Origin: Eledone cirrhosa
Taxonomy: Eukaryota
Length of the DNA: 64,000 bases
Direction of reading: 5' to 3'
Assembly: GCA_964016885.1 (NCBI GenBank)
Contig: OZ024744.1
Span: 67,518,001 to 67,582,000 of the forward strand
Both the position numbers and the translations under genes were made by a program. Below are positions 10,342 to 57,523 of this stretch, piece by piece. Within the stretch, counting starts at the first letter, position 1. Each line of letters opens with the position of its first letter. The notes under the pieces are model-generated. The model ran no database searches, was not told the DNA's origin, and saw only the letters and a list, made by a program, of their open reading frames with translations.

Positions 10342-10417
<76 letters not shown>

Positions 10418-10529
10418 ATTATTATTAGATATGTAAGCTATCGCCGTATTTTGACTAAAGAATTTAAAGAAATTATTTAGCCTGATAGTGGGGTTAAGAA
10501 CCCTCGGAGAAATGGAAAAAGATGAGTAT

Positions 10530-10601
10530 TGACGTACATGGGAGTCGAACCCACATCTTTGGTTATCCGGACCACTGTGATACCATTTACACCAACACAT
10601 C
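10530..10601 (-). tRNA. Mirror copy of the tRNA-like cloverleaf
   Basis: Exact reverse complement of 10606-10677. Confidence 0.7.
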
Positions 10602-10605
10602 ATGT

Positions 10606-10677
10606 GATGTGTTGGTGTAAATGGTATCACAGTGGTCCGGATAACCAAAGATGTGGGTTCGACTCCCATGTACGTCA
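10606..10677 (+). tRNA. tRNA-like cloverleaf (pseudo-tRNA or SINE head; loop CC-GGA-TA lacks U33), followed by TTTTT at 10687-10691
   Basis: Acceptor GATGTGT/GTACGTC, D-arm GTG..CAC with A box TGGTGTAAATGG, anticodon stem TGGT/ACCA, T-arm GTGGG-TTCGACT-CCCAT (B box). Spacing is the canonical 72 nt. Confidence 0.7.
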
Positions 10678-10904
10678 ATACTCATCTTTTTCCATTTCTC
10701 CGAGGGTTCTTAACCCCACTATCAGGCTAAATAATTTCTTTAATTTCTTTAGTCAAAATACGGCGATAGCTTACATTTCTAATAATTTCAAACCCACTCG
10801 CTGTTTCGAAAATATTCCTATATATACATATAGTGCAAATTTATACGGGAACAAAACAGAGAGGCAGACAAAGAAAGGTTTATTAGTTTCACGATATATA
10901 TATA

Positions 10905-11593: not shown

Positions 11594-12949
<1,356 letters not shown>

Positions 12950-13290
12950 ATACATATATATTTCTCAGATAGGCATTGGAGGAATAACATCAAAATCTGC
13001 CCAAGACATATTGCACATTAACAAAAGATTACACAATAGTTGTCTGGTGAGGTCATATCTATTACATAATAGATACCACTGAAATATACATAACAGTAAC
13101 AAAGTATTCAATAACCATTTTTCCATCTTTGTATGGGTTAGATGGGTCCTCCACCTTGGGAGACAAGTCTCTCCAGAATTGGCCATGCTGTACTTTGCTC
13201 CACCGAATTTGGCCAAGGATTTTACAGCTGGATGCCCTTCCTAAAACCAGCCACATATACAGCGAGTGTGGAACTATATATATATATATA

Positions 13291-14030
13291 AATGTAATCA
13301 GAGTTTTTCGAATATTAATAATTGTTTCTACTTTAGGCACAAGGCCAGCAATCACCCAGTGTATTACTGGTACTTTATTTTATCGACCCCGTAAGGATGA
13401 AAGGCAAAGTCAACCTCGGCGGGATTTGAACTCAGATCGTAAAGGGACGTAACTATGCTGGAAAGCATGGCGTGCGACCCTCTACCGATACTGCCATAAT
13501 AACATTCGATTCGTTTGCAATTATGCAAACAAGCCTCATTTTTAAAGCTATGTCAGTAGAATGAACCCTTCATTCTTTCTTGCTCTTGTGTTGGCATGTA
13601 AACATTTTTTTTATTTGAATGTGGCAAAGCCAGCCATTTGTCACTCGTATATAGGAAACTGACTGGCCAGTCTGCTGATATTCAAATCTGGCTGATCAGT
13701 GGATCTGCTAATATGCAGATTTGACTGATCAGCCAGTATGCTAATATGCAAATCAGGCCAATCAGTCACTGTATATTTTAGAAAATAGCAAATATTTTTA
13801 CTTGCTCTGATAGTTGGCAGGTGAACAGTGAGCTGTACTGATGAGCTGTACTGATGAAACATTAGTGTCTGCAGTTCTGTTTACATGCCAACACAAGAGC
13901 AAGAATGAAGGGTTCATTCTACTGATATGGCTTTAAAAATGAGGCTTGTTTTTATAATTGCAAATGAATCGAATGTTATTATTAATATTCGAAAAACTCA
14001 GATTACATTTATTGTATTCAGTCATATAGA

Positions 14031-14103: not shown

Positions 14104-14105
<2 letters not shown>

Positions 14106-14302
14106 CGAACGAAATGTGGTAAGGAACCAGGTGGACCATAACGCACCAAAGTACTCAAACTTAGGGTAGTAGAGTGGGTAATAGGAACGAGTAGGACCCC
14201 GACGGCTGAGCTCAAGCCGTTTCGACGGCTAATTCTGGACGAGTCCGGAATTAGCCGTCGAAACGGCTTGAGCTCAGCCGTCGGGGTCCTACTCGTTCCT
14301 AT
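14104..14302 (-). mobile_element. Small fold-back element: 60-bp arms 14181-14240 / 14243-14302, tail 14104-14180; carries the 3' half of a hammerhead (GAAACGGCT...AGCCGTC)
   Basis: Palindrome with a 2-bp spacer inside (TA)n. Related fragments lie at 28893-28975 and 39361-39455. Confidence 0.8.
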
Positions 14303-21385: not shown

Positions 21386-24300
21386 AATGGCGATCGTTGT
21401 GGTCAGTGTCCGATAATCGGACGTGTGTAATTACGGCTTACATGAAGGCAACTTACCATATATTGGAAAAAGTTGAGCTACATTACGCGGTAAGATTACA
21501 TGCAATAATTCTACATAAGTGTTTGAACTGTAAGTGTGTTGTAAAACACCTATTTATATGAACGATACATACACTTATGATATATGAACGATACATACAC
21601 TTTAACATATAAATGCAACGTTGTTATATTACATTTATACAGAAATATGCAAGTAACGTTTTCGATTCAGAAACAAAAAGGTGTTTGAACTGTGAATATG
21701 TTGTGAATAAGTTGTAGAACACCTATTTATATGAATGATACATAAACTTTAACATATAAATACAGCGTTGTTATATTATATTACATTCATAAAGAAATAT
21801 ACTAATTAACGGTTCTTTTTGTTCTCGATTCAAACGATTCAAGAACAACGTTTAAAATACAGTTGTAGAATTAAAAACTAACTGACAAGAAATATTACCC
21901 AAGCTGTGAATAACTTTAAATCTGATTCTGACAGAACTTTGTCGAAACTTTTAAAGAAGATCATCGACTATTTTGAAAAATAAATACGAAATATTAGTGA
22001 ATAGACGAACTCATCATGGCAAAAAGTACAAGTCTCCTTCGTCCAAATCGCAACTACAACCGTTGTATACAGTGGAGCTACGAGCTTAACAAAGAATTAT
22101 ATGAAGCATACAAACAATCTGAACCCCAAAAGTTCGATTTTATGCAAAGGCTAAAAACTTTATGGAACTCCAAACACCCAGAATAAGACTTTTCTCCAAA
22201 GCATTTATATGAACAGGCAAAACGTATCATTAGATGTAAATTGATACATCTAACGGAATTGAGTGATACTACAAATACAGCCCTTGTAGACAACCACCCC
22301 ACCTCCACTGACAGACAAAGAGAATGGCCAGCTAAATCTAACAGTGAACAGCTCACCAACAATTTTGCTGAAATCCATCCCACTTCCACTGAAGACCAGC
22401 GAGAAAAGTCAGCTAACTCTAGTAGTAATTTTCACCACATCAACAACGAGGCTGAAATTCATAACTCTACTGTACAAACAGAACACCAAAAACTTGTGGA
22501 CACCTTACAAGTGATATGGGATGATATGTTTCAAGAGATAGACTGCCTTAATGTGGGTGACAGACCATACAACACCAGAATCAGTAAAGAACCCACTAAA
22601 TTGGAATTGGAAGCGGTGAACGAAATAGCTGGCAATTATCTGATGGCTATACGATCTAAAGGTGTAGAAACGACATTTGAAACGCTTAATATTTTGTTAT
22701 ATGTTTCAGCTGTCACATTGCTATCATATAACACACATCTAAAACCACGCAATCAAGATACAAACAGAAAGCCTGAACCAGCGTGGATGCGAAATTTAAA
22801 AAGCAAAATTTTGTCCCTGAGACGAAGTATCTCACACATCGCAGTCGTTATGAAATGCAACATAGAGAGCAACTTCACACGACACTAGGAAGACCTAAAA
22901 AAAAGTTAGAGAGACGATTTGGAGATACAAAATTTAAAACTTTGAACTCCAAATTACACCAGTTGAAACAACAACTCACAGCTACAACAGAAAGACTAAA
23001 ATATAAGTCAACAGCACATAAACGACAAGTGCTAAATAGATTGTTTGCCAGAGATCCTAAATCAGTTTATCGCAGCTTCGGTGGCAAAAGCTCAATCCCT
23101 GTAAATGACACCCCTTCAAAAGAACAGGTTGAGAGCTACTGGAGATCTGTATGGGAAACGGATGACGGATTCAACAGACAAACTAATTGGCTAAAAGAAC
23201 TGGAACAGGATTACTGCCATGTCCAGACAAAACAATATGACATAGACCGGTCAATACTGGAAACAGCTCTACAGAAAATGTCGAATAGGAAATCACCAGG
23301 CCCAGACATCATTACAGGATACTGGTTGAAGAATTTCACTTTCTATCGGCAAGATCTCATACGGCTATTTACAGAAACCATTAAAGGCACACAAGAACTG
23401 CCCAGATGGTTATCAACTGCCACTACTCTCCTCATTCCCCAAAATAGCCAAACCACCCTTGCTAAAAATTACCGCCCAATAGCCTGCCAAAACATCATGT
23501 ATAAATTATATACTGGGTGCCTTAACTTGTTCTTACAGGATCACTGTGCTACCAACAACATCATAACACCTGAACAAGCTGGTGGAAAAATGGAGGTGTG
23601 GGGTTGCATAGATCACCTACTAACTAATAATATGATTCAGGAAAAAAAAAACAAAGAATCGCAGAAACATGACTGTGGTGTGGCTGGACTATCAAAAATC
23701 ATTTGATAGTGTACCTCATGGGTGGATTATTAAGGCTTTACAGTTAGCCAGAGTCCCACAACCATTGGTAGCTGCTGTTGAATGCCTGACCAAGAACTGG
23801 TACACCAATTTGATCCTTAGAGGTGAGAAGGAGCAAGTTAAGACTGATAAGATACATTACCAGAAGGGCATCTTTCTGGGTGATAGCTTGTCAGTGCTAC
23901 TCTTCGTTCTCTCACTGAATCCACTATCTTACCTACTCAGGAAACAAGGTGGACAAAGAATTAGGTCCAGAAGTATCTCCCATCTTTTCTTTGTTGATGA
24001 CCTGAAGTTGTCTGGGCCAAATATCAATGCCATCAAGAAACAATTGGACTTCATTACACAATTTTCAACAGACATCAAAATGAAATTTGGTGAGTCCAAG
24101 TGTGCATATTTGGCAGTAAAACGTGGAAAAGCTGTGCCCTCCTCTAGAAATCTAGAGATGAACGGCCTGACAATACAACCTCTACAGATATCTTGGACAG
24201 GATGAGAATGTCAGATATGATGGACCCATAAATAAGGAGAGAACCAGAACTAAATACCTCAGAAGAGAAAAAGAAAATATGGTCATCAGAACTGTCAGCG

Positions 24301-25587
24301 TACAACAAATACATTGCCCACAATACTTATGCTGTGCCAATTCTAACGCCAACATTTGGGCTGCTGAACTGGTCATTGCAAGAACTAAGTGAGATGGATG
24401 TTAGAACTCGCAAACTTCTCAGTGTTACTGGGAACTTTAACATCAATGGTGATGTGGATAGGCTATACTTCTCACGCAAGGAAGGTGGCCGGGGTCTAAA
24501 ATCAATATTAACAACATATGATACCCGGATAGTAACACTGAAGCAACACCTTCAACAGAGGAAAAAGGTTGGCAACCATCTTGCCCAGGTTTATGAGCAT
24601 AAAAAAAAATATCATTAGAATAGCGACTGATCTGGAGGAGAGATATGGAATAAAGCCTGATATAAATCTCTCACCCAGAGAAATCGGAAGATCCTATTCA
24701 ATGTTAAAACAAGATGAAAAAATTGACCAATTTACAGAAAAAGTTGTGCATGGATACTTTAGGCGTAAAACACAGACCATAGAGGGGATAAACCACTCAA
24801 AAAGCCTGGCATGGAGTTCCGACAAGTTTATGACATCACACCTTGAGGGATATCTCTATGCAATACAGGAACAAGAACTCCCTACCAAATATCTGTTGCA
24901 CAAAAGGGGAGGGCCAGCAGCTGACAATAAATGTAGGCTATGTAAAACAAAGATCGAGGATGTAAGCCACATTGTTGCCAGCTGCGAAAGAATGTCGTCT
25001 CGCTACTACCTCCCCATGAGACACGATGGGATAGCTAGAACCATCTGGAACGCACTTCGGAAAACAAAATTAACAACAAACGAGGAAGAATATATTGAGA
25101 CAGATGGCACTAAGGAATACTGGTGGAACCTGAAAATAAAAACTGCCACCAAATTAAAGCACAACCGGCCTGATATTGTTGTTTGGGACCACACATTGAA
25201 AACGTGTTCTGTTGTGGAGATCAGCTGCCCACTTGATGTAAACGTTGTCAGAAAAATACAGGAAAAGGAGGACATCTACGGACCATTGATGAGGAGTTTA
25301 CAAATCCAGTATCCTAGATACACCTTTAGCTTCATACCCATCATTATTGGAGCTACGGGTTATATACCAACCCGCTTGGACAAAAGTATGACTGAACTTG
25401 GATTTGCGGACAAAAAGCGCAGCTCCCTAATTCATAGCCTACAAATGGCTGCGATAGCTGGCACCTTCAAAATTTGCAAAACATTCTTGCGATTCAAGGG
25501 ATGACAATTTCTTTTCTTTTACAACCTTGCCACCAGGAAGGTGGCCGGTCAAAAAAAATATACTCGAAATTAAGAGAAAGAGATAAC
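21386..25587 (+). mobile_element. R4/Dong-type (RLE) non-LTR retrotransposon, probably near full length and disrupted; ORF from ~22016 to 25504
   Basis: RT motifs KSPGPD, NYRPIAC, WLDYQKSFDSVPH, GDSLS and FVDDLKL; CCHC CRLCKTKIEDVSHIVASC; RHD; RLE RPDIVV..VEISCP. Flanked on both sides by (CATA)n. Confidence 0.9.
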
Positions 25588-26156
25588 ATACATACATACA
25601 TATATACATACATGTGTTTATAGTTTGAGTGTATGTTATCTTAAAGATCCCACTGTTGTGTAATACTCTATAAGATTTGTACCTACTTCTTTGCTGCATA
25701 TCAATCACAGTAATGTCTTTGATAACAGCAGCGTTTTATCTCCTTTCCTGCTCATTAAAACTGCAGTCTTTTCTAGGTTTACTCTGAGCCCATTTCAGTT
25801 CTTGCAGTTATCTCACTCTGAAGAGTGCATCAGAGGTAGCCGGTCAAATCTGAACATTTTACACCTGCTTTTTCATGATGACATGGATTGGTCAAGACAT
25901 TTTGAGGCAGTATTCTCAAGTCCGAAGATCTCTCTAATGCTAAACCTTTCTTTTTTTTAAGACACACATTTTTTGTTTTGAGTCACTGGAAATATTGCTA
26001 GAAATAGTAGTCAATTATCTCTCTCAGTTAGAAGACATTGGACAGTGTAGTCTTAGATACATTGTGTATGAATTAAAAACAGGATAAAACATATTTGATC
26101 ATAGTCTGTGAGATGAGAACTGATCTAAAGCATAAATTACTGGTGCCTGCACTTTC

Positions 26157-30674: not shown

Positions 30675-33600
30675 ATACGAGCTTAACAAAGTATTATATG
30701 AAGCATACAAATAATCTGAACCCCAAAAGTTCGGTTTTATGCAAAGGCTAAAAACTTTATGGAAATCCAAACACCCAGAATTAGACTTTTCTCCAAAGCA
30801 TTTATATGAACAGGCAAAACGTATCATTAGATGTAAATTGATACATCTAACGGAATTGAGTGATACTACAAATACAGCCCTTGTAGACAACCACGCCACC
30901 TCCCCTGACAGACAAAGAGAATGGCCAGCTAAATCTAACAGTGAACAGCTCACCAACAATTTTGCTGAAATCCATCCCACTTCCACTGAAGAACAGCGAG
31001 AAAGGTCAGCTAACTCTAGTAGTAATTGTCACCACATCAACAACTAGGCTGAAATTCATGACTCTACTGTACAAACAGAACACCAAAAACTTGTGGGCAC
31101 CCTACAAGTGATATGGAACGATATGTTTCAAGAGATACACAGCCTTAATGTGAGTGACAGACCATACAACACCAGAATCAGTAAAGAACCCACTAAATTG
31201 GAATTGGAAGCAGTGAACGAAATAGCTGGCAATTATCTGAAGGCTATACGATCTAAAGGTGTAGAAACGCCATTTGAAACGCTTAATGTTTTGTTATATG
31301 TTTCAGCTGTCACATTGCTATCATATAACACACATCTAAAACCACGCAAACAAGATACAAACAGAAAGCCTGAACCAGCGTGGATGCGAAATTTAAAAAG
31401 CAAAATTTTGTCCCTGAGACGAAGTATCTCACACAACGCAGTGGTTATGAAATGCAACATAGAGAGCAACTTCACACGACACCAGGAATTCCTAAAAATA
31501 AAAGTTAGAGACGATTTGGAGATACAAAATTTAAAACTTTGAACTCCAAATTACACCAGTTGAAACAACAACTCACAGCTACAACAGAAAGACTAAAATA
31601 TAAGTCAACAGCACATAAACGACAAGTGCTAAATAGATTGTTTGCCAGAGATCCTAAATCAGTTTATCGCAGCTTCGGTGGCAAAAGCTCAATCCCTGTA
31701 AATGACACCCCTTTAAAAGAACAGGTTGAGAGCTACTGGAGATCTGTATGGGAAACGGATGACGGATTCAACAGACAAACTAATTGGCTAAAAGAACTGG
31801 AACAGGACTACTGCCAACATGTCCAGACAAAACAATATGACATAGATGGATCAATACTGGAAACAGCTCTACAGAAAATGTCGAATAGGAAATCGCCAGG
31901 CCCAGACCTCATTAAAGGATACTGGTTGAAGAATTTCACTTTCTATCGGCAAGATCTCATACGGCTGTTTACAGAAACCATTAAAGGCACACAAGAACTG
32001 CCCAGATGGTTATCAACTGCCACTACTCTCCTCATTCCCAAAAATAGCCAAACCACCCTTGCTAAAAATTACCGCCCAATAGCCTGCCAAAACATCATGT
32101 ATAAATTATATACTGGGTGCCTTAACCTGTTCTTACAGGATCACTGTGCTACCAATAACATCATAACACCTGAGCAAGCTGGTGGAAAGAGGGAGGTGTG
32201 GGGTTGCATAGATCACCTACTAACTAACAAAATGATTCAGGAAAAAACAACAAAGAATCGCAGAAACATGACTGTGGTGTGGCTGGACTATCAAAAAGCA
32301 TTTGATAGTGTACCTCATGGGTGGATTATTAAGGCTTTACAGTTAGCCAGAGTCCCACAACCATTGGTAGCTGCTGTTGAACGCCTGACCAAGAACTGGT
32401 ACACCAATTTGATCCTGAGAGGTGAGAAGGAGCAAGTTAAGACTGATAAGATACATTACCAGAAGGGTATCTTTCAGGGTGATAGCTTGTCAGTGCTACT
32501 CTTCGTTCTCTCACTGAATCCACTATCTTACCTACTCAGGAAACAAGGTGGACAAAGAAGTGGGCCCAGAAGTATCTCCCATCTTTTCTTTGTTGACGAC
32601 CTGAAGTTGTATGGGCCAAATATCAATGACATCAAGAAATAATTGGACCTCATTACACAATTTTCAACAGACATCAAAATGAAATTTGGTGAGTCCAAGT
32701 GTGCATATTTGGCAGTAAAACGTGGAAGAGCTGTGCCCTCCTCTAGAAATCTAGAGATGAACGGCCTGACAATACAACCTCTACAGTCAGGTGACAACTA
32801 CAGATATCTTGGACAGGATGAGAATGTCAGATATGATGGACCCATAAATAAGGAGAGAACCAGAACTGAATACCTCACAAGAGTAAAGAAAATATGGTCA
32901 TCAGAACTGTCAGCGTACAACAAATACATTGCCCACAATACTTATGCTGTGCCAATTCTAACGCCAACATTTGGCCTGCTGAACTGGTCATTGCAAGAAC
33001 TAAGTGAGATGGATGTTAGAACTCGCAAACTTCTCAGTGTTACTGGGAACTTTAACATCAATGGTGATGTAGATAGGCTATACTTCTCACGCAAGGAAGG
33101 TGGCCGGGGTCTAAAATCAATATTAACAACATATGATACCCGGATAGTAACACTGAAGCAACACCTTCAACAGAGGAAAAAGGTTGGCAACCATCTTGCC
33201 CAGGTTTATGAGCATAAAAAAAAATATCATTAGAATAGCGACTGATCTGGAGGAGAGATATGGAATAAAGCCTGATATAAATCTCTCACCCAGAGAAATC
33301 GGAAGATCCTATTCAATGTTCAAACAAGATGAAAAAATTGACCAATTTACAGAAAAAGTTGTGCATGGATACTTGAGACGTACCATAGAGGGGATAAACT
33401 ACTCAAAAAGCCTGGCATGGAGTTCCGACAAGTTTATGACATCACACCTTGAGGGATATCTCTATGCAGTACAGGAACAAGAACTCCCTACCAAATATCT
33501 GGTGCACAAAAGGGGAGGCCAGCAGCTGACAATAAATGTAGGCTATGTAAAACAAAGATCGAGGATGTAAGCCACATTGTTGCCAGCTGCGAAAGAATGT

Positions 33601-34190
33601 CATCTCGCTACTACCTCCCCATGATACACGATGGGATAGCTAGAACCATCTGGAACGCACTTCGGAAAACAAAATTAACAACAAACGAGGAAGAATATAT
33701 TGAGACAGATGGTACTAAGGAATACTGGTGGAACCTGAAAATAAAAACTGCCACCAAATTAAAACACAACCGGCCTGATATTGTTGTTTGGACCACACAT
33801 TGAAAACGTGTTCTGTTGTGGAGATCAGCTGCCCACTTGATGTAAACGTTGTCAGAAAAATACAGGAGAAGGAGGACATCTACGGACCATTGATGAGGAG
33901 TTTACAAATCCAGTATCCAAGATACACCTTTAGCTTCATACCCATCATTATTGGAGCTACGGGTTATACACCAACCCGCTTGGACCAAAGTATGACTGAA
34001 CTTGGATTTGCGGACAAAAAGCGCAGCTCCCTAATTCATAGTCTGCAAATGGCTGCGATAGCTGGCACCTTCAAAATTTGCAAAACATTCTTGCGATTCA
34101 AGGGATGACAATTTCTTTTCATTTACAACCTTGCCATCAGGAAGGTGGCCGGTCAAAAAAATATACTCAAAATTAAGAGAAAGAGATAAC
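30675..34190 (+). mobile_element. Second R4/Dong-type RLE LINE copy, 5'-truncated
   Basis: Colinear and highly similar to 22078-25587, with GIFQGDSLS and FVDDLKLY. Flanked by (CATA)n at both ends. Confidence 0.92.
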
Positions 34191-34740
34191 ATACATACAT
34201 ACACACACACATATACACACACAAGCCGGCGTTGGTGTTTAATGAGGTTGAGAACTGGTCAGCTCTCAGCCAGAGCTGTGGTATTAAATCTCTCTAGGAA
34301 ATAAAATCTGGAAATAAAATTCTCTCCTTACCAAAGAAAAAAACATAAATCATGTCAACATCCTTACACACTTAAATAAAAATGCCTGTATATATACAAA
34401 TGTATAAATGCATAGCTATATACATAGGTAAATGTATGTATGTATATATGTATATATGTATGTAAATTTATATATATATATTATACACACACACACACAC
34501 ATATATATATATATTTTTTTTTTTTCAGTCTGGTCTACCTCTGGTGGTAGGGTCCATACCGTAGATAGGACTCAATGTAATCTTGTAAAATCTAAAGAGA
34601 AGTTCTGTGTTTCGCTGAATTAATTCTTTAGATACTGAGTCAGATATTAGGTATTAAATTAACAATAAAAATAAAAACAACAAAATAAAAACAAAGTTAT
34701 AAAGTAACTTGTCTTTGTTCTTTTTATTTTCATTGTTAAC

Positions 34741-35680: not shown

Positions 35681-35760
<80 letters not shown>

Positions 35761-35761
<1 letters not shown>

Positions 35762-36135
35762 GATATTAAATAAATGGAAACTATATTTATAAAACCATAT
35801 TTATTTCATTATATATATTTCAGGGATATCATATTAAAAATATGGTATGCCTTCTTCAGACAAAATACAATATAAACAGTCTTATAAATAGATAGATTTG
35901 ACAGGTATGTCAAATCTATCTATTTATAAGACTGTTTATATTGTATTTTGTCTGAAGAAGGCATACCATATTTTTAATATGATATCCCTGAAATATATAT
36001 AATGAAATAAATATGGTTTTATAAATATAGTTTCCATTTATTTAATATCGTAAATATACTCCAAATACTTGTTGAGTGCTTTTATATCAGTTATAAATAT
36101 TTACTCGTTGTAACCCAACAATTTAAATAAAACTT

Positions 36136-36138
<3 letters not shown>
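35761..36138 (+). mobile_element. Fold-back hammerhead element: arms 35761-35903 / 35908-36050, tail 36051-36138, in (TA)n
   Basis: 143-bp arms with a 4-bp spacer. Same family as 38759-39272. Confidence 0.88.
35944..36009 (+). ncRNA. Type I hammerhead motif (CTGAAGA core); mirror on - at 35802-35867
   Basis: TATTTTGT-CTGAAGA-[helix II with CATATT/AATATG]-GAAA-TATATA-TA-ATGAAATA. Helix I is 8 bp including 2 G-U pairs. Confidence 0.75.
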
Positions 36139-36170
<32 letters not shown>

Positions 36171-38195: not shown

Positions 38196-38758
<563 letters not shown>

Positions 38759-38759
<1 letters not shown>

Positions 38760-39270
38760 CAATATTAAATAAATGGAAAACTATATTTATAAAACCATAT
38801 TTATTTCATTATATATATTTCGGGGATATCATATTAACAATATGCTATGCCTTCATCAGACAAAATACAATATAAACAGTTTTATAGATAAATATATTCG
38901 ACATACCGTAATAAACATCGACTTCATTTGAAGAGGTTTACGCTAGCAGTGGTTGACTGCTAGCGTAAACCTCTTCAAATGAAGTCGATGTTGACTGCTA
39001 GCGTAAACCTCTTCAAATGAAGTCGATGTTTATTACGGTATGTCGAATATATTTATCTATAAAACTGTTTATATTGTATTTTGTCTGATGAAGGCATAGC
39101 ATATTGTTAATATGATATCCCCGAAATATATATAATGAAATAAATATGGTTTTATAAATATAGTTTTCCATTTATTTAATATTGTAAATATACTCCAAAT
39201 ATTTGTCGAGTGCTTTTATATCAGTTATAAATATTTACTAGTTGTAACCCAACAATTTTAAATATAACTT

Positions 39271-39272
<2 letters not shown>
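38759..39272 (+). mobile_element. Fold-back hammerhead element: left arm 38759-38950, right arm to 39185 with a 38-bp tandem duplication at the junction, tail to 39272
   Basis: Hammerheads at 39077-39142 (+, CTGATGA) and 38802-38867 (-). Same family as 35761-36138. Confidence 0.88.
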
Positions 39273-39355
<83 letters not shown>

Positions 39356-41541: not shown

Positions 41542-41972
41542 GTCTACACAGTTCCGTCTACGAGATTCTACGAAATTCTATTCAAAATACATTAGTTAAC
41601 TCAGGAATTGTAGTAGACAGACCACACTTTCTCAGCGTGTTACGCAGTAGAAATGGTCTCTGTAACATGCGATTGTCAAACGAACTTCTTCACCACACAA
41701 CAAAGTTTTCTCTCTATTTCGCTTATCTCTCTCTCTATCTATCTATCTCTCTATCAGACGTGTGTAACTTCGCGGAGAAGTTTCCGTTAATTTATGTAAG
41801 AAAAAAACGTTAGTTTTTAGTTAAATTTTATATCATTGTGTAACTTGACCACCCGTCTGGACCTTCAGGTGGTGGGTCAACTCATTTTCGCCCCTACAGG
41901 GGCGGAATAACCATTTAAAAAATTTTTCTCCATCGAATCTTGGAAAAAATATTGTAAAATTTTGATTACGTT

Positions 41973-43633
41973 ATGAACGCTGCGTCCAACGATAATGGTG
42001 GTGGAGAGGCGGTAAGACTACAAAGCTCGCAGTCAACAACGTCTTCTTCACTAGATACTATAGAGATGGAAAGACCAAATGAAAATGTAAAAACGAATTC
42101 ATATCCAAACAGCACAAATGACACCAAACAGTTCAATGACAACAAAAATAACAGCAACACCAATAATGATGATAAAAGCAACAATGATAACAACAACAAA
42201 GAAAAAAATAAAGACAACACCAATAACACCAGCATCAAAGACAACAACAACACCAAGGAAAAGACGAATACTATCAACATCGGTGACAACAAGAATAACA
42301 ACAACAATAACAACAATAATGACAACACCACCAATACGGATTCCACAAAGAAACCAAAAATCTCCTTTGCAGAGAAAGTTCAAAAGAAGGAAGAATTGAT
42401 ATATCTCGACATAAAAAATGCTGAACAACTTTTAAAGGACGCTAGGAGATATGTTACTTTCGGAAAAAATGGTGCTTTCAGCATCAATTCTCCGGTAGAA
42501 ATTCGCAAGGAAACTGCTCTCAAAACGATAGTTTTTAGGACAGTTTCCAATTCTACCCGAAAACTAGTCCAATTGTCACAGAAAGAAATTGAACTGGTTT
42601 TCAAAAATTCAATGAATGATATTGCATTCATTCAAAGAAGTAAACTTTTTGGGAGTATTTCGGTACTCATGAAGGATCAATTGACGGCCCAAAATTACTC
42701 TGTGTCGCCAATTGTATCCAACCTGTACACCTTTTTCCCTACATACATGGGAAAAAGGACACAAAAGATCAGAATCACGAGTGTCACACCAAAGGTGAAC
42801 ATATGGTGGATACTGTGCGGCTTCATCAATTTTGATGAAGACAGAATACTGTCAGTAGGAAAGTCCCCCAGAGATGTATTCAATGGGACTAGCATTGAAG
42901 TTCTGGTGCAAATGAGCCCAGAGCGAATAGCTATGAGCCCACAGCGTGTACTCCTGGATGGACTCACCTACATAAACTTTTCGGTTGAGGGTAGGCGGCC
43001 TTCATGTTACCATTGCTTTAGCAGGGGGTCACCTGTCCTAAATTAATGAACCAAAAAAAGGCTCTTCTGCCGACACCCATCAAAACAACACAACCACCAA
43101 CACCACCACAACAACAACAACACCACCAACACACAAAAATAACCACAACAAACACAGTCCCACCCAACCCCACTCCACCTAAAACCACTGCAAAATCACA
43201 TACAGACACAACAGCTCCCCAAGACATACCCCTCCCCAATCACACAGACGATACAACAGATGAGGCTATCTCGCCATCACCCAGTGAAGACGAGGGAGAA
43301 CCCCATCGCTCGAAAAGAAAGAAAAGACATAACAAAAGCAAAAAAACAGCAAACACTACCACAAACATACAACCACCAACACAAACAACAAAAACATCAC
43401 AAACCAAACCCCCACCTCCTGAAAACAAAATACCTACAACAAAACGAAAGCACACACAAGAACTACAGACAAAAACAAACACAACACAAGAAAATTACAC
43501 TTACACTTACATAAACACTGAAAATAAAACACTAATGGAGACCATCACGAACGACCCTTCGGTTTTCACCGAAGGGAAAACTTTCGCCCACTCTATTAAA
43601 AATAGCAAAAAAACTGAACCTAAAACTGATTAG
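41973..43633 (+). pseudogene. LINE ORF1 (gag-like) with Asn-rich N-terminus, zinc knuckle and Pro/Thr-rich C-terminus; frameshifted at the G-run near 43024
   Basis: VEGRRPSCYHCFSRG(H) zinc knuckle is interrupted by a frameshift; the ORF lies upstream of ORF2. Confidence 0.75.
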
Positions 43634-43916
43634 GGTCCCTATACAAACTTATAGGTCCCTAAAAGAAACATTTGAGAAGGATGTGGGGAATTCCTGCGTG
43701 AAACCACTCAACCGCGTCCTTCTCAAATGCCTCCCCACCCCAGACACCCCCATCCCACCAGACCCCACCCCACCAAACATCTGCGTCCCCACCCCGCCGG
43801 AAACCACCACCCATCCAGACAACCCCTCCAACACCCCCATGGAAATCGTGCGGCCTGGTCCCCAGGAGGCGAAGGGTGAGTGATCTCTTTTCCTCTTTTA
43901 ACTTTTCAGCACCAAC

Positions 43917-46900
43917 ATGGCCAATATAAGAGTTGGATGTGTGAACGTACGCGGCCTGGGGATGCCCTGGAAACAGGGCAAACTCTTAAACGACCTCAGG
44001 TCGCACAGTATGGATGCGGTAGCCATTTGCGAGTCCAGGATCCACGGCGAGCGACAGCTGGCCCCCATCTTCGATGACTTTGAGATCTACGCATCTCTCT
44101 GTCAACCGGGGGGTGGGGGCGGAGTTGCCGTGTTGCTGCGGAAACACCTGGGCCTCGTAACACAGACGGTACATCTGGACCCGGAGGGTCGACTAGTGGT
44201 CCTAGACGTTGACGGTAGTGAAGGTGGAGCCTTCAGGCTGGTGGCCGCATATGCCCCATCCGGGACACTGCGGCCAGACTTCTTCAAACGTCTAGAGACT
44301 TTTCTGGGAACGTCCCGCTCCTTGCTTTTAGTGGGGGACTGGAAAGGAATCCTAGATGCACGTTGGGACTATGTGGGAGCATGTCCCGATAAAGGGGGGT
44401 ATAACAGCCTCAAACAGTTAATCGACCGATTTGACCTGGCCGATAGATATCGACTAGATTTTCCGACTGCGCCACTGTGGACGTGGAGTAATCGTAGCGG
44501 TACATCTAGATCGTACCTAGATAAGGTTCTAGTTAGAAATAAGGATAGGGACATGTTAAGCTGTCCACAAATGTTCATTGTTGCCTATTCAGATCACAAA
44601 CTAGTGACCTGCATGGCCAACCTTGATAGAACCCATAGACAAGGACCCGGCTACTGGAAGCTGAACTTGTCGTTACCGACAAGCAAAGCCTACAGTAGAC
44701 GGATTAGCACTTTAGTTAAACAGCACTTGACAGGGGCCATAGTCAACAACAGATGGTGATACTCTCTCAAGAGGGCAGTTAGATTAGACTCGATAGTTTT
44801 TAGTAAAGAATTAGCGTTAGATAGAAATAGAACCGAGAAGGAACTGGTAGATAAAGTAGAAGAGGCAATTAGAAGTGGCAACGTAGCCAGCGTGCTAGCA
44901 ACGATAACGGACTTGGACCAGTTCTTCGACGCAAAGCACGAGGGCTGCGTTGTCAGAAGCAAAATACGTGCTCTGGGAAACGAGGGAGCCAAAGCTGTTA
45001 GCTGGGCCCGAGTGACGGAGGCAAAAAGTGGCAACAAGTCCACGATTCGGTCTTTGAAGGACCAAAACGGATGCGTGATACGTGAGCCGAAGCAGATGTG
45101 TGCAGCTTTTCAGCGGCACTTTGCTCGGCTGTTCGGGGGGGGGGGGGGGAGGCTATGGATTTCGGTCCATATCTCGACGGCCTACCGCGACTCTCGGACA
45201 GCGAGGCAAAGTTCTGCGAAAAGCCGATTTCAGCCACTGAGATAGGGGACGCACTGAGCCAATGCGGCAAACGCAAATCTCCAGGTCTCGACGGTCTACC
45301 CTACGAATTTTACGTAGCAATGCCGGACTTATTCTCCGGTCTCCTGGAAGCGGTCTACTGCAACTGGCAACAGAACGGGAGAATTCCCAGTTCTGTAACC
45401 GGGGGCGTGGTCACACTAATCAGGAAGGACGAGAATAAGGGGGATGACATAGGCAACTTCCGGCCCATAACTCTGCTAAACACAGAGTTAGAGATTTTGG
45501 CCAAGGTGTTGGCAAAGATGCTGGCGCTTGTCATCGAGAACCTGGTGGGAGAAGCGCAGTCCCGACCAGGTCCATACACGACAACCTCCACCTCATGCGA
45601 TACATCATAGATAGGGTAGGGTGTAAACCCGGCTTCGGTGGGGCCCTGATCAACTTGGATCAGTCTAAGGCTTTCGATAGGGTTGACCATCATTACCTGG
45701 ATGCGGTGCTCGAGGCGACAGGCTTCGGACCCGTGTTCAGGGGCTGGATTGCTGCAATGCATAACAGCAACATCTGCTCAAGGGTCAAGGTGAACGGCTA
45801 CCTCTCGGAGCCGTTCCATATTACGCGATCCATTCGACAGGGATGCCCTCTCTCCTCGTTTCTGTACGTATTGACTCTCGAGCCACTACTGCGGAAGCTG
45901 AAGCTATTGCAGGGCATCCCTCTGGAACCGGGACTGCGGAAAGCGGCGTCGGCCTACGCCGACGACGTGACAGTAATGGTGTCGAGCGCCTCGCAAATCG
46001 AGGAAGTCGGCACCTTACTGAAGGAATACGAAAGTCTCACAGGAGCGAAGCTGAACCGGGACAAGTCCATCGGTTTGCAACTCGGATCGTGGAGAGGCAA
46101 ACCGATGCCTTCCGATGGCGTCGTCGGACGCTGGACGGAAGGACCGGTAAAGCTGCTCGGGGTCTGGTTTGGTCCGGACCTCCAGGTGGAGAAGAACTGG
46201 AACGAAGTGACGGCCAAGGTGTTTGCACTCACCCAGAAGTGGGCCGAGTGCAAACTATCCTTGAAAGGTCGAGCGGAGGTGGCGAACACTTTTATAGCGT
46301 CCGCCATCTACTACCGCTTGACCGTCGTGCCATGTCCAGCCAAAACGCTCGCCAAAATGGAGCGCGCGCTCTTCCGATTCTTTTGGAAGAGGCGGGCTCC
46401 TTTGGTGAGAAGATCCATCTGCTGCCAACACCCTTCTAACGGAGGGCTGGGGATGCCGTGGTTGACGATGCGCAAACACGCGCTCAGGCTGCGGCATCTC
46501 TACGTATTCCTCACCGGACAACCGGTGTGGGCCCCGTTCGTGAGGCGAGCCTTCCCACGACTCGTCTCGCTGACCGAGCTGCAGTCCTGGGTCAAGCAAA
46601 GACCGAGGAAAATGGGCGACTGGCATATCGAATGTGCTCAGGCGCTCACAGCCCTCTGGCAGGCGGACCCGGCGATCTGTGGAGACTCCACTTCGTCATT
46701 CTATAGAGGGTTGGTCCGCAGCAAGTGCGACGACGCGCTCGGTGAAACTCTAGGCGTAGAGGAAGATGAACTGGCCTGTCTGTTCGGTAGGACCTTCCGC
46801 CCGGGACCGATGGACAACTTCCAAATGTCCCTGGCCTGGCAGTGCTACCGAGGAGCTCTACCAGTTCGAGACAAGCTCTACAGACATGGGCGCCCGGGCA

Positions 46901-47304
46901 GAGACCCTGCAAAAAAGATCTGTCCGAGGTGCGTGCGAGACGAAGAAACCGTCGCGCACGCATTCATACACTGCCCGGGCGTCACTGATCTGTGGGGCTA
47001 TGTGGAACGACTATTGTCGCGGGTGGGACCAATCCAGTTGACCACCGAGTCCATTGTCATGATCAAACCGCCCCCCTCCTTCAAAAACGAAGGAGAGGCG
47101 GTTTTCCTTTGTGTGATAGCTATGGCGAAAGAGGTTGTATGGTGGACAAGGTTGAAAGGGCTGAGGTCAGACACCTTTCTCTCCGGCCAACAACTGATTC
47201 TTTTTTTCAAATACCACTTTGGAAGAAGAATCAGGATGGAGAGAGAGGTGCTGTACCCCAGCAAGTTTTATGAAAGGTGGGTGAAAGTGGCGAGAATGGC
47301 CTGA
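43917..47304 (+). pseudogene. LINE ORF2: APE endonuclease, reverse transcriptase and Cys-rich domain; stop at 44757, frameshifts near 45140 and 45560
   Basis: NVRGL, GGVAVLL, AYAP, VGDW, SYLD, SDHKLV, GPGYWKLN, KSPGLDGLP, NFRPITLLN, LDQSKAFDRVDH, RQGCPLS, YADD, CPRC..ETVAHAFIHC. Confidence 0.93.
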
Positions 47305-47779
47305 GTGAATGGGCCTTCTCTCTATATCAGCCTGTAGGTTGAGGAAAAGGAGGAGGAGAGGAAAGGAGTACAAACTCTTCGTACTCCTGGAGATGAGGGT
47401 TGCACATTTTTTTTCGGGGGTATGTGTTACCCATATAAACTGTCTCCCTCTATTGGGGAAAATCGACTAACTTTTTAAATTCCATTTGTGATAACATTTT
47501 ACACGTTTTTATTGTATGTAAACTTCCCCCTTTGTATTTGTCACCTTCTTTTGTGCCCCTGTGGCTAATAAAGAAATATATCTATATATCTATCTCTTTC
47601 TGTACCGTATAAATACTTAACTCTTTATGTAATTGTCATTTGTATTTCCAGGCACTTTCTTTCTTTCTCTTTCTCTCTCTCCTCTCTCTCACCCCTCTCT
47701 CTTTCTATCTCTCTTTCTGTACTGTATAGATACTTAACTCTATATGTAATTGTCATTTGTATTTCCAGACACTTTCTTT

Positions 47780-57385: not shown

Positions 57386-57457
57386 GGAGGCTATATATAT
57401 ATTTATAAAATTTTTTCAGGGTATGTCAATAATTATTTATAAAACTAATCTGTATTG

Positions 57458-57523
57458 TATTTTATCTGATGAAAGCACACCATAATTTGCCTTGGTGGCC
57501 CTTGAAATATGTATAATAAAATA
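57458..57523 (+). ncRNA. Solo type I hammerhead motif in a short TA-flanked remnant related to the 35.8/38.8 kb family
   Basis: TATTTTAT-CTGATGA-AAG..CACCA..TGGTG..CTT-GAAA-TATGTA-TA-ATAAAATA. Confidence 0.75.

Follow-up and report, generated by a model that had tools for sequence, protein, structure and literature searches.

According to the accessible text of PMC8557442, insertions of Penelope-like elements (PLEs) often lie in (TA)n and combine partial tandems, an inverted copy truncated at its 5' end and a tail of 30-40 bp on one side only. Work with a purified PLE protein (PMC11167929, accessible sections) found nicking and extension on both strands of the target, in the absence of homology to it, with two internal start sites that lie on either side of the tail. 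Known or proposed parasites of these elements include the non-autonomous PLEs and the hammerhead retrozymes in the available portions of PMC8557442, PMC7229834 and bioRxiv 10.64898/2026.07.22.740005. The Chlamys MRC1-type non-autonomous PLEs (PMC8557442) and the animal non-LTR retrozymes (PMC7229834; bioRxiv 10.64898/2026.07.22.740005), as characterized in the same portions, share with the family described here a non-coding tandem unit of 170-400 nt, pLTR-like tandems, an inverted 5'-truncated arm, a one-sided tail and proposed PLE mobilisation. However, the present family is without a hammerhead and has a conserved tRNA-type promoter and a run of five T residues (T5). MRC1-type elements also generally show 3' homology to an autonomous family in the accessible text of PMC8557442, whereas none is detectable here. 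The words 'tRNA' and 'Pol III' are absent from the available part of bioRxiv 10.64898/2026.07.22.740005. The nearest precedent found is that of the schistosome hammerhead repeats, which include a full tRNA in a tandem unit of a few hundred bases; unlike the present family they contain a type I hammerhead and count as retrozymes, and the accessible text of PMC4918200 makes no mention of PLE-type staggered ends or T-arm stops.

The TRIMp3 elements Cassandra, Helenus and Ajax likewise have a small-RNA-derived Pol III promoter inside the repeated unit, and homology of their LTRs to a partner is not needed. In Cassandra, Pol III transcription begins within one repeat and terminates within the following one, so that the RNA is terminally redundant. 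These are nonetheless LTR elements: they have a PBS, a PPT and TSDs of 4-5 bp and depend on Copia/Gypsy for their movement (all after the accessible part of PMC10886601). The present family has none of these features and no separate internal domain, and it shows variable 5' ends, inverted arms and PLE ends in (TA)n. The tRNA-derived SINEs, including the octopus OK, OR1 and OR2 families reportedly described by Ohshima and Okada in 1994, are also short and non-decoding with A and B boxes; in the present family, by contrast, the tRNA is internal to a permuted unit, the 3' end is produced by internal priming and there is no LINE tail. No description of a hammerhead-free PLE parasite with a tRNA promoter was found in the literature searched outside Repbase and Dfam. 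The octopus annotation of PMC13282606 lists, in its accessible text, hundreds of unclassified SINE families, which may include the present one.

The window analysed here is a 64,000-nt stretch of Eledone cirrhosa DNA. It contains an inverted repeat, 10421-10602 / 10605-10786, with arms of 182 nt, a 2-nt spacer and two mismatches (Table 1). Unit positions are numbered from the first tRNA base (u1), and u271 corresponds to -1. The palindrome, the cloverleaf, T5, the (TA)n tract and the one-sided tail with ACTC are all as the first-pass annotation described them. The tRNA-like segments at 10606-10677 (+) and 10530-10601 (-) match Rfam RF00005 with 41 bits, compared with a gathering score of 29, and ARAGORN calls the segment Ser(GGA). 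Rfam also returned miRNA matches to the palindrome; these fall below the gathering score, reflect the hairpin and were discarded. The palindrome belongs to a young family that is non-coding and dispersed, and represents one of its insertions. It is not a product of chance or of assembly, because hundreds of loci show the pattern and reversed-pattern controls gave 0, the arms differ mutually by several substitutions, and the family occurs in read-derived contigs, including those of a second organism. We assign a probability of about 0.6 to the reading that it is a tandem element of 271 nt, non-coding, probably transcribed by Pol III from its internal tRNA-type promoter and probably copied into (TA)n by the reverse transcriptase-endonuclease of a PLE.

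Table 1 Features of the palindromic insertion in the window.
Feature	Position	Strand	Remarks
Target tract (TA)n left of the insertion, plus a short TTA run	10345..10420		(TA)n itself 10345-10412
Inverted arm, from inner start site u181 back to u271 (-1), without tail	10421..10602	-	Outer ends at u177-183 in 35/64 loci
tRNA-like copy within the inverted arm	10530..10601	-	ARAGORN, Rfam
Arm junction	10603..10605		10604-10605 = unit u270-271 (5' leader); 10603 untemplated
Direct arm, u270 to u~214, single partial copy of the 271-nt unit	10604..10819	+	
tRNA-like cloverleaf, predicted Pol III promoter	10606..10677	+	A box ~10613-10624; B box ~10656-10666
Main family stop/centre zone u56-69, unused in the window copy	10661..10674	+	
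T5 run, predicted Pol III terminator	10687..10691	+	10 nt past the discriminator
PLE-type tail on one side only, from the inner (u181) to the outer (u~214-223) start site	10787..10819	+	ACTC 10796-10799
Short TA-rich target remnant, right side of the insertion	10820..10832		

Other repeats populate the window. Hammerhead-type non-autonomous elements with a palindrome and a one-sided tail in TA lie at 35753-36170, 38270-38743 and 38752-39340, and further ones of the same layout at 12340-12950, 14105-14302 and ~57400-57520; some of them sit inside one another's TA flanks. An additional palindromic element in TA with staggered ends occupies 1526-2561 and 2530-2741. Two RT-bearing LINE copies of 3.5 kb (22079-25610 and 30676-34213) are 96% identical, and an element at 41958-47585, with a partial second copy at 6-1036, is presumably L1/Tx1-like. 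A dispersed repeat of ~190 bp, found at 13305-13506 and in about 20 more places, is abundant and apparently an ordinary SINE.

Comparison of the flanks of family matches yielded a repeat unit of 271 nt in partial tandems. A second subfamily has a unit of about 260 nt that is ~80% identical and of the same layout. Mean divergence within a subfamily is 3-4%, and family members are also present in read-derived contigs of a second organism. A DNA search of the 3.0-Gb genome gave 1,451 candidates, 40 of which were scored, the best at 96-99%. The genome contains 819 exact matches to a 34-mer near the 3' end and 1,176 to an intact T-arm 28-mer. The family is present at some thousand or more sites within TA-repeat tracts. 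Detailed counts were made on 89 loci, drawn from the first 100 listed 34-mer matches, all on one contig (90 examined, one duplicate removed); this set was chosen without regard to the 5' end, yet it selects for the window's subfamily and for copies reaching u187. The direct arm ends at u214-223 in 80 of the 89 loci. An inverted arm is present in 64, and 35 of these arms start at u177-183, such that two fixed 3' start sites lie ~35-40 nt apart. Arms longer than 230 nt, i.e. tandems, occur in 16 of the 89 loci, and the longest seamless tandem has up to about 3 units (L077). TA-type flanks are found at 72/89 left ends and 82/89 right ends, compared with 180 of 1,200 random windows. The predicted multi-copy, TA-embedded nature of the element is thus borne out.

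Between the subfamilies, the tRNA without its anticodon loop together with a 20-nt trailer differs in 1/85 columns and the rest in 47/183 (Fisher p=7e-8, indel columns counted singly; 19 versus 6 natural units, 1 of the 19 probably misassigned, and ~12 of the 47 being indel columns). In the 76 copies that are in register, out of 88, the stems are paired in 68-76, pair 27-43 excepted, and the acceptor stem is intact. The anticodon loop, in contrast, has 12 variants in these copies, with a variation of 9% versus 1.4-3.3% elsewhere. A run of at least 5 T follows in 119/119 copies matched. The predicted promoter, fold and terminator are thus kept while decoding is lost, as the stems, boxes and T5 are conserved whereas the anticodon loop drifts. 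The initial suggestion that the tRNA does not decode agrees with this loop variation. Its premise, an anticodon loop without U33, applies to the window copy but not to the whole family, since T is present at u33 in 22/76 copies; loss of U33 is specific to the subfamily of the window. Neither a stable anticodon loop with U33 nor the long variable arm that a functional tRNA-Ser(GGA) would have was found among the 76 copies, in which the variable loop is 4 nt.

The 16 loci recovered by an Rfam genome search (63 scored of a very large list) are mostly Thr/Ile genes plus another repeat and offer no clear parent as source tRNA. A tRNA-Thr/Ile gene cluster lies at 243.65-243.68 Mb of one contig (L167, L169; G000:C1:243.65-243.68 Mb). 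A second, unrelated family of ~1.7 kb (L168, L170-L178; e.g. G000:C1:420766010-420766082) starts in TA and has subterminal inverted repeats of ~175 bp as well as a short palindrome at the terminus; it carries a high-scoring tRNA-like gene of 53-72 bits whose anticodon varies (GAC, AGC, GGC, GGT, GTC).

As the first-pass annotation had stated, there is no hammerhead. A relaxed core scan, which recovered two of three window controls, detected no sense-strand core in either subfamily, and Rfam reported none. An antisense look-alike in subfamily B (CTGATA, one mismatch) is the 3' side of a hairpin and was dismissed. The fold of the whole unit is no better than that of shuffled sequences (z=0.03), and the long-range pairing of leader and tail in the minimum-energy fold was set aside with it.

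The layout of the copies is that of non-autonomous PLEs: pLTR-like partial tandems, a fixed 3' end with 5' truncation, an inverted arm starting 35-40 nt inside the direct end, a one-sided tail and a (TA)n target. A search of the genome for GIY-YIG domains gave 10,597 candidates, of which 150 scored above the cut-off. Long ORFs with RT and with GIY-YIG at the C terminus span 844-1096 aa and are open in three loci (L182-L184: 938, 844 and 1,096 aa). These autonomous elements also have (TA)n targets, head-to-head palindromes and a one-sided tail of ~35-45 nt; they differ from the present family in encoding RT and EN and share nothing with it beyond 4-mers. By the cysteine motif ahead of GIY-YIG they appear Neptune-like (PMC8557442, accessible text); the same source catalogues octopus Naiad and Hydra families. 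One of them (L193:2460-5725) is a 3,266-bp palindrome of 99.7% identity with one tailed arm and TA flanks, the same layout as in the family, and is a very young two-armed insertion. The PLE-type anatomy proposed at the outset is supported, and there is no LINE-type tail. The proposed homology of the 3' half to a PLE pLTR or tail did not materialize: the best matches of the unit among 50 GIY-YIG loci, a small sample skewed to few families and composed without Naiad and Hydra copies, are only 12-20 nt long and AT-rich. Twenty larger stretches taken in the search for a partner likewise lacked homology. Three short motifs of the unit had no match in the PLE library in the accessible material of PMC8557442. 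ACTC occurs 5-10 nt into the tail in the present family, in two hammerhead non-autonomous families of the window and in two autonomous families, whereas two other families have AATC or ACTT at this place; as a link to PLEs this shared motif is post hoc and weak. In subfamily B (L212, L213, L229) ACTCGC occurs ~7 nt past the outer start site, echoing the ACTC after the inner one, and is possibly a positioning signal.

Two readings with other motors bear on this layout. An ordinary tRNA-headed SINE, moved by a LINE and inverted by L1-type twin priming, is largely refuted and has next to no probability left. The A/B boxes derived from tRNA, the size and the lack of coding capacity fit it; however, the copies have fixed internal 3' ends and no poly(A) or simple-repeat tail of their own, the inverted segments are duplicated rather than complementary, the staggered ends are of the same kind as in L193, and conserved sequence continues upstream of the tRNA in 664 junctions versus 45+57 copies that start near the tRNA. 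No LINE-derived tail was found, the copies ending at internal sites and then TA, and TSDs are undefinable inside TA tracts. Because the tRNA sits inside a circularly permuted tandem unit and the 664 junctions are seamless upstream, the family is not a simple tRNA-headed SINE, and this part of the first-pass annotation is not supported. Palindromes and tandems in TA tracts occur also in MITEs, Helitron/Helentron derivatives and satellites. A DNA-level element of such a type with a captured tRNA gene is nevertheless scarcely credible, as the 3' ends are fixed and the 5' ends ragged, the stops fall at RNA landmarks (T-arm, leader), re-priming jumps occur and fixed terminal inverted repeats are lacking. 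The PLE layout, the TA targets and the absence of a LINE-type tail uphold PLEs rather than LINEs as the likely motor.

The 5' ends are not distributed evenly. Over 121 single-segment arms, those from one locus not being independent, stops occur at a rate per nt of 0.049 at u56-69 (69/100 at risk), 0.028 at -8..+7 (11/25) and 0.002-0.006 elsewhere. Genome-wide, 840 palindromes are centred at u56-69, on the T-arm and acceptor 3' strand, versus 45 at the tRNA 5' end, which overturns the earlier claim of a shared fold-back point at tRNA position 1. In 2/3 cases the stop is again at a T-arm, that of the upstream unit. The u56-69 zone contains the self-complementary words CATG (10667-10670 in the window), GTAC and ACGT. 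The data point to a block near the T-loop, followed by trimming to CATG or ACGT, because no stops fall in u49-55, the deepest T-arm stops are at u56-59, copies without an inverted arm stop there too (11/25 at u59-66), and a T-arm stop is followed by renewed priming downstream in five copies (L038, L049, L061, L062, L095). Template jumps onto T5-terminated RNA were considered, but the three cases at u84, two of them with 5-nt microhomology, may represent one inherited deletion and are weak. The equivalent of tRNA A58 is u57 (10662 in the window copy), and m1A58 is a demonstrated reverse-transcriptase stop (PMC8599865, accessible text). The T-arm stop may be due to m1A58 or to structure. Read-through copies show no excess of an m1A misincorporation signature at u57 (1/71; 1/76), so that a G-C-rich T-stem alone, or a cut in the T-loop, could also be responsible.

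The second stop zone lies at the leader. In the 45 start-centred palindromes, identified by a pattern that permitted a reach to about u248, a hand tally of the furthest base gave u264/265 in 1, u266 in 15, u267, u268, u269 and u270 in 6 each, u271 in 5 and u1 in 0. The resulting wall at -6 is 13 nt ahead of the A box; the window copy reaches -2. A Pol III start is expected at about that distance before an A box, and the wall is consistent with the predicted start. An AT/CG micro-palindrome coincides with the wall and is a confounder, since it could favour joins there. The earlier proposal that a Pol III transcript was copied to its 5' end therefore holds in that a wall exists just upstream of the tRNA, although it lies at about -6 and never at +1. 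In 57 further copies TA is joined directly at the tRNA 5' end (control 1). As the 664 upstream passes, out of 1,176 intact T-arms, exceed the 45 palindromes plus these 57 copies, many templates do not begin at -6.

These stops also bear on a retrozyme-like circle, in which a read-through tandem RNA would be cut by host tRNA-processing nucleases, circularised and copied by the PLE enzyme, with the u56-62 stop as a cleavage site or a block on circular RNA. Seamless tandems of up to about 3 units (L077), the 664 pass-through junctions, the intact acceptor stem and a unit size inside the animal retrozyme range of 170-400 nt (PMC7229834, accessible text) favour such a circle. Against it, 0/45 junctions are at +1, the RNase P site, which also eliminates RNase P as the origin of the 5' wall; the main stop is 5' of the RNase Z site u72/73; the -6 wall needs a linear 5' end; and the whole-unit fold (z=0.03) is unlike that of retrozymes. 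We regard the circle as improbable.

How the two arms arise was assessed from their relative reach. Simple two-arm loci make up 44 of the 64: 22 are symmetric, 13 have a longer inverted arm and 9 a longer direct arm. In the asymmetric loci the end at a hot spot is on the shorter arm in 8/22 and on the longer in 10/22, and in L085 one arm extends to u65 and the other to u266, one hot spot being paired with the other. The u167A marker is common to both arms in 17/18 loci, and polymorphic letters are shared between arms in 93 versus 42 cases. The arms thus stem from the same source sequence, which equally fits fold-back, conversion or twin priming on one RNA; no case of different templates was seen in this marker comparison. 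The first-pass annotation favoured a simple fold-back by the same machinery, which fails because a fold-back arm cannot outreach its cDNA at the 5' side, yet the inverted arm does so in 13/44. A PLE-mobilised single-cDNA fold-back could be retained if later central deletions of unstable palindromes caused the asymmetry. The markers common to the arms, the 22/44 symmetric loci and the self-complementary words at the centres agree with it, whereas the 13 further-reaching inverted arms, the hot-spot ends on shorter and longer arms alike, L085, and the extension of both strands by PLE protein in vitro (PMC11167929, accessible sections) do not, and we consider it unlikely. A pair of target-primed cDNAs that met at micro-palindromes agrees better with the data: if they began at u~181 and u~216 and were joined at self-complementary words, both the loopless centres and the tail are explained.

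The best reading is a non-autonomous, PLE-mobilised element with a predicted Pol III promoter, the PLE counterpart of Cassandra/Helenus. Pol III would start about 6 nt ahead of the tRNA, and occasional read-through of T5 would give an RNA that spans the start sites. The PLE enzyme would cut both target strands and prime one cDNA per end, at u~216-220 and at u~181, with one RNA, or that and a sister RNA, as template. Either cDNA would extend toward the RNA 5' end and usually stall at the T-arm (u56-62), at m1A58 or a G-C hairpin; less often it would get to the RNA 5' end (-6) or continue into the upstream unit. Joining of the cDNA ends via CATG, ACGT, AT or CG would then create the palindrome and the one-sided tail. 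In the window copy, a rare case, neither cDNA would have halted at the T-arm and both would have run on to the start before stopping. Read-through transcripts, or else strand transfer over a ~90-nt terminal repeat, would account for the seamless tandems. Since T5 should end the majority of Pol III transcripts at u82-86, short of the start sites, read-through must be assumed. The position of T5 upstream of the priming sites is a puzzle for which Cassandra may offer a model: leaky termination would produce a terminally redundant RNA, from one tRNA to the T5 of the next unit. A stronger version is tentative and on balance doubtful. It holds that these are hammerhead-free, Pol III-driven PLE parasites whose RNA runs from -6 to the next T5, that the leaky terminator builds the pLTR, that host m1A58 halts the reverse transcriptase in ~70% of passes, and that the more than 800 palindromes record an RNA modification braking a retroelement.

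SINEs are by definition parasites of LINEs, and TRIMp3 elements are parasites of LTR elements, with Pol III promoters; the present family would fill the matching PLE slot and do so with no ribozyme. How PLEs make tandem, inverted and tailed insertions is an open question for which the family also offers a small natural substrate: for an RNA of 271 nt, both start sites and both stop zones are mapped, and roughly a thousand outcomes are on record. The asymmetry of the arms speaks for two-ended priming in vivo. Should m1A58 prove to be the T-arm stop, the products of retrotransposition would be shaped by tRNA methylation of the host.
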